Below the pieces are notes generated by a model, which saw only the letters and a program-made list of their open reading frames with translations, made no database searches and was not told the origin of the DNA. From Escherichia coli (GTDB lineage Bacteria > Pseudomonadota > Gammaproteobacteria > Enterobacterales > Enterobacteriaceae): a stretch of 64,000 nucleotides of DNA. Of this stretch, positions 23,017 through 26,215 are shown piece by piece. Location of the stretch: assembly GCF_041248615.1 (NCBI RefSeq), contig NZ_CP158426.1. The stretch is one strand, 5' to 3'. The number at the start of each line of letters is the position of its first letter. Positions within the stretch are counted from its first letter, which is position 1. Position numbers and translations under genes: made by a program.

Positions 23017-24675
<1,659 letters not shown>

Positions 24676-24824: not shown

Positions 24825-25313
24825 TTAGCGGACTACCGCGTTGTCAATTTTCTCTTCCGCCTTCCAGACGCGGTACTTCACATCCACATTGTCTGGCGTA
24901 TACACCACGATCGGCAGCTTGCTGTTGTAACGCAGCATTCCAGCATCGCCCAGATATGCGGTGACAAATTTCTTCTCTTTCTTGCCATCCGGGCAGGCCA
25001 TCATCGTGGAAACCGGCGAGCTAACTTTATCAAAGACATAATAATCATAGCCCCAGCCTTCCAGCGTTTTGCTTTCCAGCTTCCCGCCGAGACGATGCAA
25101 ATTGCAATCGACTTCCAGCGTCTGGCCGATTAACAGTTCTACTTTCAGGGTAGATTCATCTTCTTGCGGGGTTAACTGAATCACCTGACGCTTCATGCCT
25201 TTTTCAGCTTGTGGATAAGGCGCGATTTTTTCCAGTGGCTGGACGCTTTCCGCCGCCCAGGCGGAAGTGGTGGCGAAAGCGGCAAACAATACTGCAGGTA
25301 GAATGGTCTTCAT
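24825..25313 (-). CDS. eco: Ecotin, periplasmic serine protease inhibitor
   Basis: Start set at [20 protein letters not shown] (162 aa), not the upstream in-frame Met. Confidence 0.95.
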
Positions 25314-25498
25314 TTTTTTGCTTTCCTTCTTCATTTATAGGTTTTCACCGATGATGTCGCTGAAGGTTAACATATTCATCAGATTTATTAATTTGCTTTA
25401 TGAATAACTTAAAGAACATTCAGACAATTTTACCTGCTCTTTTAGTGTTAAATTCTGATGAGAAAACAAACCAGCAGAAATATCTCTGGCGAATTAAT

Positions 25499-25522
25499 CG
25501 CTATATAAATATGTTTATAACC
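25499..25522. promoter_or_regulatory. ModE operator of the napF promoter
   Basis: CGCTATATA-N6-TTATAACC dyad; centre lies exactly 89 bp upstream of the NarP site centre, matching the reported -133.5 / -44.5 architecture. Confidence 0.55.
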
Positions 25523-25572
25523 ATTTGAAATGTGAGCAAAAGCCCGTTTTTGCCACGCTTCCCGCCACTCTT

Positions 25573-25586
25573 TTGATCCTGCCACA
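25573..25586. promoter_or_regulatory. Probable FNR site of napF P1
   Basis: TTGATcctgCCACA; consensus left half-site only, but centred 20 bp upstream of the NarP site as expected for the -64.5 FNR site. Confidence 0.45.
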
Positions 25587-25591
25587 GGTTT

Positions 25592-25607
25592 TACCCCGAT
25601 CGGGGTA
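25592..25607. promoter_or_regulatory. NarP/NarL 7-2-7 heptamer pair
   Basis: Perfect palindrome TACCCCG-AT-CGGGGTA, followed by a TAATAT -10 at about 25628-25633. Confidence 0.85.
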
Positions 25608-25720
25608 TGCATCTTTGACACATCCTTTAATATCTTAGCGGCTATAAAAATGGCTTATTAATTATGCGGTTTATTTGGTCGCTCTCAATTTTCAGAGCGC
25701 GTTAATGATGGAAGGTCAAT

Positions 25721-26215
25721 GTGAAGATTGATGCATCCCGTCGGGGCATACTCACTGGTCGCTGGCGCAAAGCCAGTAACGGTATCCGTCCGCCCTGGTC
25801 CGGTGATGAATCTCATTTTCTGACCCATTGCACCCGCTGCGACGCCTGTATTAATGCTTGTGAAAACAACATTCTGCAACGCGGCGCGGGCGGCTATCCG
25901 AGCGTTAATTTCAAAAATAACGAGTGCAGCTTCTGTTACGCCTGCGCGCAGGCTTGCCCCGAATCGCTATTTTCTCCGCGCCACACCAGGGCCTGGGATT
26001 TGCTGTTCACCATCGGGGAGGCGTGCCTGGCGTATCAAACAGTTGAATGCCGCCGCTGTCAGGATAGCTGTGAGCCAATGGCAATTATCTTTCGCCCGAC
26101 GCTCTCCGGGATCTACCAGCCGCAACTTAATAGCCAACTTTGCAACGGATGTGGAGCATGTGCAGCCAGCTGTCCGGTATCAGCCATAACTGCGGAGTAT
26201 CTCCATGCACACTAA
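25721..26215 (+). CDS. napF: Ferredoxin-type protein NapF
   Basis: 164-aa ORF with multiple CxxCxxCxxxCP 4Fe-4S motifs. Confidence 0.95.
   Translation: MKIDASRRGILTGRWRKASNGIRPPWSGDESHFLTHCTRCDACINACENNILQRGAGGYPSVNFKNNECSFCYACAQACPESLFSPRHTRAWDLLFTIGEACLAYQTVECRRCQDSCEPMAIIFRPTLSGIYQPQLNSQLCNGCGACAASCPVSAITAEYLHAH

Follow-up and report, generated by a model that had tools for sequence, protein, structure and literature searches.

The stretch between positions 25497 and 25644 of the analysed DNA is almost certainly the control region of napFDAGHBC (periplasmic nitrate reductase), with sites for ModE, FNR and NarP/NarL and with a predicted P1 start near A25644. The analysis covered 64,000 nucleotides, here called the window, which is Escherichia coli chromosome. 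The napF control region within it is real, conserved and already known. It brings little new biology; the napF region is among the best-dissected multi-input promoters of E. coli and integrates oxygen, nitrate level, molybdate, carbon source and Fe-S status. What its recovery does illustrate is that real regulatory sites can be located from raw sequence at base-level accuracy. The genes around the control region are as follows.

23029-24675, plus strand: mqo, from the list of open reading frames.
24825-25334, minus strand: eco (ecotin), from the list of open reading frames.
25335-25720: eco-napF intergenic region, which holds the napF control region.
25721-26215, plus strand: napF coding sequence with a GTG start, first gene of napFDAGH, from the list of open reading frames, RefSeq and the K-12 annotation.

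The identity of the locus was established from its neighbours and from its matches. The region is flanked by eco on the minus strand and by napF in the open reading frames, in the RefSeq annotation of identical DNA and in K-12. In the list of open reading frames napF is followed by napD, napA, napG and napH, and the control region lies directly 5' of napFDAGH. A 461-bp intergenic query found a match in 5,421 of 5,426 complete E. coli genomes, in every case on the chromosome, and the annotations lying under the matched 461 bp were eco, napF and either yojO or a 'hypothetical protein'. From eco to the first napF codons, 394 of 401 positions are identical to K-12 MG1655 (NC_000913.3), with no gaps. 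Two of the seven differences fall inside sites, namely G25513 in the ModE spacer and C25583 in the right half of the FNR site, and the latter is the single difference between -80 and the start codon. The three sites named in the sequence-only reading, an earlier annotation made from the letters alone, are these.

25497-25524, plus strand: ModE operator-like dyad ATCGCTATATA-AATATG-TTTATAACCAT, centre 25510.5, which is -133.5 from A25644.
25573-25586, plus strand: FNR site TTGAT-CCTG-CCACA (14-mer TTGATCCTGCCACA), centre 25579.5, which is -64.5; only the left half matches the consensus.
25592-25607, plus strand: NarP/NarL 7-2-7 site TACCCCG-AT-CGGGGTA (TACCCCGATCGGGGTA), a perfect 16-bp palindrome, centre 25599.5, which is -44.5.

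All strings quoted in that reading were located by script where it had placed them, and each of the long strings occurs only once in the 64 kb. The centres are separated by 69 bp (ModE to FNR), 20 bp (FNR to NarP) and 89 bp (ModE to NarP). The spacing of 89 and 20 bp that had been claimed was thus borne out, both distances being measured to the NarP centre and not as consecutive gaps. When the NarP centre is set at -44.5, +1 becomes A25644, FNR lies at -64.5 and ModE at -133.5, and the arithmetic of the claimed -133.5/-64.5/-44.5 architecture is correct for this start. Stewart et al. 2003 and McNicholas & Gunsalus 2002 reportedly gave the values of -64.5 and -133.5. The description as 'textbook spacing' holds in the sense that the spacing is as published. 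The architecture itself is unconventional, the canonical class I and class II activator positions being -61.5 and -41.5. The napF 7-2-7 site has been placed at -40 to -49 (PMC4549865).

Conservation of these sites was analyzed by a NapF-based scan with one genome per species, which yielded at least seven usable orthologous loci among the matches listed: a divergent E. coli, E. albertii, four Citrobacter and Leclercia adecarboxylata. In the following, eight genomes denotes the Escherichia and Citrobacter sequences including the window, and nine denotes the same set plus Leclercia. All eight Escherichia/Citrobacter sequences have the same ModE-NarP distance (89 bp) and the same FNR-NarP distance (20 bp), and the geometry of FNR site, NarP site and -10 is kept in Leclercia too. 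Seven runs are invariant in the eight genomes.

25525-37: TTGAAATGTGAGC.
25572-79: TTTGATCC, which becomes TTGATC once Leclercia is added.
25590-95: TTTACC.
25602-10: GGGGTATGC.
25618-26: ACACATCCT.
25629-37: AATATCTTA.
25708-15: ATGGAAGG, the Shine-Dalgarno block.

All of these runs except TTGAAATGTGAGC persist when Leclercia is added. Invariant positions make up 38 of 50 within the sites of the sequence-only reading, compared to 54 of 97 elsewhere in -147 to -1 (Fisher p = 0.02), a contrast that is diluted because the outside set includes two further strongly conserved blocks. Variation within the sites is found where it would be expected to be tolerated, in the ModE spacer, at position 11 of the FNR 14-mer and at heptamer positions 5 and 7 of the NarP site.

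The NarP/NarL site had been described as a perfect palindrome, and indeed TACCCCGATCGGGGTA equals its own reverse complement. Each heptamer matches TACYYMT at six of seven positions. The degenerate 7-2-7 consensus is not rare, with two matches in the window at up to two mismatches (2.7 expected). Perfect 16-bp palindromes occur four times in the window (expected ∼1.0-1.25), and for a perfect palindrome with TACYYM arms the analytic expectation is ∼0.002 per window. The 7-2-7 site is kept in the nine genomes. In the eight genomes 13 of the 16 columns are invariant, and only heptamer positions 5 and 7 vary; the Citrobacter version, TACCCCAATTGGGGTA, is again symmetric. napF is one of four classic 7-2-7 promoters (PMC2718512).

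The FNR site was described as having one consensus half, which applies here even more than in K-12: the TTGAT half-site lies at 25573-25577, and the right half CCACA matches the consensus at 1/5 positions, compared to 2/5 for CTACA in K-12. With four of ten consensus positions mismatched, the 14-mer is, by consensus alone, indistinguishable from chance in a scan of the window. Support for the site comes instead from its exact position, its invariance across genera and a ChIP peak in K-12. TTGATC is invariant in the nine genomes and always lies 20 bp from the NarP centre. In K-12 an FNR ChIP peak with a weak PWM score was assigned to napF/yojO, and the co-regulators listed for it are NarL, NarP, IscR, ModE and BasR (PMC3688515). 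This ChIP-seq/ChIP-chip peak, 2301669 in U00096.2 coordinates, has a PWM ln p of -5.37, among the weakest in the table, and was called by two of four peak callers in cells grown in glucose without nitrate (PMC3688515). The weak score agrees with a half-consensus site. The peak maps to about window position 25572, within ∼8 bp of the centre of the 14-mer. For this mapping we used an offset from U00096.2 to U00096.3 that we take to be 1,977 bp, uncertain by ∼2 bp. In the leader, the 14-mer at 25675-88 resembles the FNR consensus more closely, but it is not conserved and was dismissed.

At position 25583 the window carries C in place of the K-12 T. This allele is rare: as an exact match, the window version of the 57-bp stretch containing the FNR and NarP sites was found in 4 of 5,426 complete genomes and the K-12 version in 4,933. 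Position 25583 is the only variable column of the FNR right half and can be A, T or C, with A in E. albertii and Citrobacter. Since the position varies across genera, the change to C is probably neutral. We consider it decidedly unlikely that C25583 lowers FNR occupancy and shifts nap control towards NarP, CRP and ModE, which would make it a natural regulatory variant of a model promoter.

These observations also bear on whether any of the motifs might be a chance match without function in this strain, the FNR half-site being the most plausible candidate. C25583 leaves six of ten FNR consensus positions, TTGAT occurs 110 times on the plus strand of the window, and the FNR consensus scan of the window did not recover 25573-25586 even at two mismatches. 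Moreover, the K-12 site is itself already among the weakest PWM scores of FNR peaks, and the degenerate 7-2-7 motif at up to two mismatches is as frequent in the window as in shuffles. However, none of the nine genomes shows a change in the half-site or in its distance of exactly 20 bp from the palindrome, and the calculated probability of finding it by chance at one pre-specified position is ∼224/64000 = 0.004. The altered base lies in a column that varies between genera and is unlikely to matter, and FNR occupies the K-12 locus in vivo (PMC3688515). A chance match is therefore hardly credible, and we retain the reading of 25573-25586 as the FNR site of the napF promoter.

The ModE dyad was likewise found at the place given for it. 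The arms as they had been quoted, CGCTATATA at 25499-25507 and TTATAACC at 25515-25522, are however separated by N7, and the claimed N6 spacer is obtained only with the 9-mer right arm TTTATAACC; this does not shift the centre. The 28-bp ModE pattern ATCGNTATATA-N6-TATATANCGAT, allowing up to three mismatches, has one match in the window (25497-25524, two mismatches) and none in 100 dinucleotide shuffles. An earlier pattern, TATATA-N7-TAYAT, had no match in the window. The best matches 5' of K-12 modA and moaA, GTCGTTATATTGTCGCCTACATAACGTT and GACGCTATATACATGATTACATAGCGAA, lie in the same frame as ATCGCTATATAAATATGTTTATAACCAT of napF, and the score in the 28-bp frame is 18/20 for napF and 16/20 each for modA and moaA. 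The three share the frame xxCGyTATAT-N-TAyATAryCGxx, and the left arm CGCTATATA is common to the moaA operator and napF. Unlike modA and moaA, napF has TTTAT for TAYAT in its right arm TTTATAACC and C for G at the outer CG. Whereas the operators of modA and moaA lie near the start, the napF site is located ∼133 bp 5' of it, a position reportedly described by McNicholas & Gunsalus 2002. In the eight Escherichia/Citrobacter genomes the arms are kept, the spacer is variable and the dyad is always 89 bp from the NarP centre. No ModE-like site was seen in the alignment of the Leclercia napF region. The spacer base G25513, which replaces the K-12 A, is at a non-conserved position.

Directly 3' of the ModE dyad lies a block that was absent from the earlier list of sites.

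25525-37, plus strand: conserved block TTGAAATGTGAGC, inside the CRP-like 22-mer.
25528-49, plus strand: CRP-like 22-mer AAATGTGAGCAAAAGCCCGTTT, centre 25538.5, which is -105.5 from P1 and 41 bp from the FNR centre.

TTGAAATGTGAGC is the longest invariant run of the control region (13 of 13 columns in the eight Escherichia/Citrobacter genomes). Compared with the TGTGA-N6-TCACA core, AAATGTGA is a perfect and invariant CRP left half; on the right, the core GCCCG agrees at 2/5 positions. A Crp site 5' of the Fnr and NarP sites at napF was reportedly described by Stewart et al. 2009. The block at 25525-49 probably corresponds to that site.

The same DNA carries an annotated open reading frame on the opposite strand.

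25448-25612, minus strand: yojO, a small open reading frame of 54 codons (b4604 in K-12), overlying the NarP, FNR, CRP-like and ModE sites.

The conservation described above could in principle be due to a protein encoded by yojO (25612 to 25448, minus strand), with the binding sites being incidental to its codons. K-12 and most RefSeq E. coli carry the annotation over exactly this stretch, and the 54 codons are intact in the window and in K-12. Among the nine sequences compared, however, these two are the only ones with an intact frame: in-frame stops are present in the divergent E. coli, E. albertii, the four Citrobacter and Leclercia, the last two genera also lack the ATG, and the open reading frame is not conserved across species. 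The DNA blocks stay conserved in spite of these stops. The conserved positions cluster into separate blocks at the binding sites, the DNA in between varies, and there is no codon periodicity. The 'conserved' YojO peptides HTPIGV, VAGSKE and AFAHIS are the translated NarP, FNR and CRP-like blocks. A coding origin of the conservation is therefore very improbable, and yojO is probably a chance open reading frame over regulatory DNA and a spurious annotation. It is annotated across the promoter in thousands of RefSeq genomes, and its apparent 'conservation' would be that of the transcription-factor binding sites beneath it.

Downstream of the NarP site, the promoter elements and the leader were assigned as follows.

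25618-26, plus strand: invariant block ACACATCCT, -26 to -18, in the spacer that separates the -10 hexamers from the poor -35 region; it too was absent from the earlier list of sites.
25628-25633, plus strand: TAATAT, -16 to -11 of 25644 and -13 to -8 of 25641.
25631-25636, plus strand: TATCTT, -13 to -8 of A25644, with a 7-nt discriminator.
25644-25720, plus strand: inferred P1 start A25644 (NC_000913.3 position 2303574, minus strand) and 77-nt napF leader, with +1 derived from the published site positions.
25708-15, plus strand: Shine-Dalgarno block ATGGAAGG, invariant.

TAATAT had been named as the -10 of P1. This is probably wrong, because the hexamer occupies -16 to -11 of 25644 and leaves a gap of 10 nt to the start, and its first T is not conserved outside Escherichia. 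TATCTT, by contrast, is invariant at all six columns in the nine genomes and is the only T-A-x-x-x-T hexamer within the invariant run AATATCTTA. TAATAT begins 3 nt before TATCTT, and each matches TATAAT at 4/6 positions. According to reports of the work of Stewart et al. 2003, napF has two starts ∼3 nt apart, the downstream of which, P1, is the one regulated by Fnr and NarP. The offset of the hexamers equals that of the published starts, which would pair TATCTT with P1 and TAATAT with P2. On geometry and conservation together, it is thus likely that TATCTT is the -10 of P1 and TAATAT that of an overlapping 5' promoter P2 with a start near 25641, and the assignment of -10 hexamers to starts would be corrected accordingly.

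Alternatively, TAATAT could be the functional -10, with the start at ∼25640-25641, which would place FNR at -61.5, NarP at -41.5, ModE at -130.5 and the CRP-like site at -102.5. The hexamer is well placed for a start at G25640 or G25641 (-13 to -8), its match to TATAAT is as good as that of TATCTT, and -61.5, -41.5 and -102.5 are usual positions for the FNR/CRP family and for class II activation. Against this stands the comparison between genera, where the first T of TAATAT is replaced by A in Citrobacter and Leclercia and TATCTT does not change. In addition, Stewart et al. 2003 are said to have inactivated each -10 separately and to have found that P1 carries the Fnr- and NarP-regulated expression, and that P2 is weakly activated by Fnr and inhibited by phospho-NarP and phospho-NarL. 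We consider a functional start from TAATAT in place of P1 unlikely and keep TATCTT as the probable P1 hexamer.

Neither hexamer has a good -35. A sigma-70 consensus scan gave no plus-strand promoter here and one minus-strand match, which is within chance expectation. The poor -35 fits an activator-dependent promoter; for such a promoter the empty plus-strand scan is expected, but it does not count as positive support. A perfect TTGACA at 25615-20 was rejected as a -35 element, being mis-spaced for every candidate -10 and unconserved. Folding of the napF leader RNA gave no significant structure (z -0.45). An IscR type-2 motif lies over 25620-44, exact in Citrobacter and with two of eight core mismatches in E. 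coli. This motif is too degenerate to serve as evidence; ACACATCCT matches it weakly.

The regulation of napF has been described in K-12. FNR and NarP activate napF and NarL antagonizes (PMC9262595), expression of napF::lacZ is NarP-dependent (PMC1802743), and ModE activates and IscR represses napF (PMC8139620). The mechanism outlined here is established for K-12 and is carried over to this strain by sequence identity. Under anaerobic conditions, the [4Fe-4S] form of the FNR dimer would bind the half-consensus site at -64.5. At low nitrate or in the presence of nitrite, NarQ and NarX would phosphorylate NarP, whose dimer would bind the 7-2-7 palindrome at -44.5, adjoining the poor -35 region. 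FNR and NarP together would recruit sigma-70 RNA polymerase to P1, with the start at ∼A25644. At high nitrate, phospho-NarL is expected to compete for the palindrome and to activate poorly, so that nap expression would peak at low nitrate. Molybdate-bound ModE at the -133.5 dyad would be required for full induction, the CRP half-site near -105.5 is probably behind the reported carbon-source effect, and IscR would repress the promoter in air. TAATAT (25628-33) would serve the weak overlapping P2, whose start is predicted ∼3 nt 5' of that of P1.

The closest known system is the napF promoter of E. coli K-12 (aeg-46.5) with its overlapping P1 and P2, which has the same locus, gene order and site centres. 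The NarP palindrome, the left half of the FNR site, the ModE arms, the -10 region, the leader and the start codon are identical, and inside the sites K-12 differs by A at 25513 and T at 25583. The K-12 region has reportedly been studied by Choe & Reznikoff 1993, Darwin & Stewart 1995, Darwin et al. 1998, McNicholas & Gunsalus 2002 and Stewart et al. 2003 and 2009.

A related arrangement is said to exist in Haemophilus influenzae Rd, where Stewart & Bledsoe 2005 reportedly described a nap operon promoter on which FNR, bound 5' in a class I-type position, acts jointly with phospho-NarP bound beside the -35 region. The sites there are reported to lie at -81.5 and -42.5, and NarL and NarP are said to be equally effective. 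By this description, to which the comparison is limited, the positions differ from the -64.5 and -44.5 of E. coli. We know of no ModE site or second overlapping promoter described for H. influenzae Rd napF.

Within E. coli, the classic 7-2-7 promoters are napF, nirB, nrfA and fdnG (PMC2718512). nirB and nrfA use the same regulators as napF and the same recognition of a 7-2-7 heptamer pair. At nirB and nrfA, FNR is positioned at -41.5 and the 7-2-7 site further 5', whereas at napF the order is reversed, with the response-regulator site promoter-proximal and FNR distal. At napF, NarL antagonizes rather than co-activating (PMC9262595).

An annotated small ORF lies opposite the napF control region, the intergenic DNA between eco and napF:
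25448-25612, minus strand: yojO (b4604), overlying the NarP, FNR, CRP-like and ModE sites
Among the genomes compared, the yojO frame was unbroken only in the E. coli window and K-12. Stop codons interrupted it in a divergent genome labelled E. coli (L002), E. albertii, Citrobacter and Leclercia. On this comparison the annotation of yojO is probably spurious, and its conservation would be that of the binding sites it overlies.

L002, from strain SCPM-O-B-8794, is a GTDB representative genome that carries the name E. coli:
NZ_JAATUR010000027.1, 1220-1510: L002 napF upstream region
This region is clearly more divergent than that of the window or of K-12. The left arm of its ModE site is CGCTATGTT and the right half of its FNR site is CAACA. 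The divergence, these two variants and the broken yojO frame suggest that strain SCPM-O-B-8794 belongs to a cryptic Escherichia lineage.

At position 25583, in the right half of the FNR site, the window carries C while K-12 carries T; the other genera have A. Of 5,426 complete E. coli genomes, 4 contain an exact copy of the 57-bp window version (25555-25611) and 4,933 an exact copy of the K-12 version. A further FNR-like sequence is located in the napF leader (positions relative to the inferred P1 start, A25644):
25675-25688: FNR-like 14-mer TTGGTCGCTCTCAA, +32 to +45, with 2 mismatches to the FNR consensus
TTGGTCGCTCTCAA is closer to the consensus than the functional FNR site. The alignment shows no conservation of this 14-mer in Citrobacter or Leclercia. 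A short inverted repeat (CGCTCT...AGAGCG) overlaps this 14-mer.

The promoter spacer and its surroundings contain the following elements:
25618-25626: invariant block ACACATCCT, -26 to -18, in the promoter spacer
25615-25620: perfect TTGACA, upstream of TATAAA
25643-25648: TATAAA, 5/6 to TATAAT
25661-25688, minus strand: promoter-like TTGAGA-16-CATAAT, 10/12, leftward and antisense through the napF promoter toward yojO and eco
The block is identical in 9/9 genomes; an IscR type-2 motif gave only a weak match overlapping it. TTGACA and TATAAA are unlikely to form one promoter, as they lie 22 bp apart and conservation of TTGACA was not found outside Escherichia in the genomes aligned. The single antisense match is at chance level (1.4 expected per shuffle).

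Downstream, at 25719-25724, ATG and TGA form a start-stop pair that shares bases with the GTG annotated as the napF start codon (CAATGTGAAG). Citrobacter and Leclercia have an in-frame ATG as the codon that follows the one aligned with the E. coli GTG.

The whole window holds 4 perfect 16-bp palindromes versus ~1.0-1.25 expected, three of them besides the NarP/NarL site:
35877-35892: GATATTCATGAATATC
38494-38509: GTGGATGATCATCCAC, containing the FNR-like TGGATGATCATCCA
45124-45139: CGCCGGACGTCCGGCG

Within the control region, no invariant run shared by the eight Escherichia/Citrobacter genomes is longer than that of a CRP-like block:
25525-25549, plus strand: invariant run TTGAAATGTGAGC with CRP half-site AAATGTGA
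AAATGTGA matches the CRP left half-site perfectly, and the 22-mer is centred at -105.5. A Crp site has reportedly been described for the napF control region by Stewart et al. 2009, and the block at 25525-25549 is likely to be that site.
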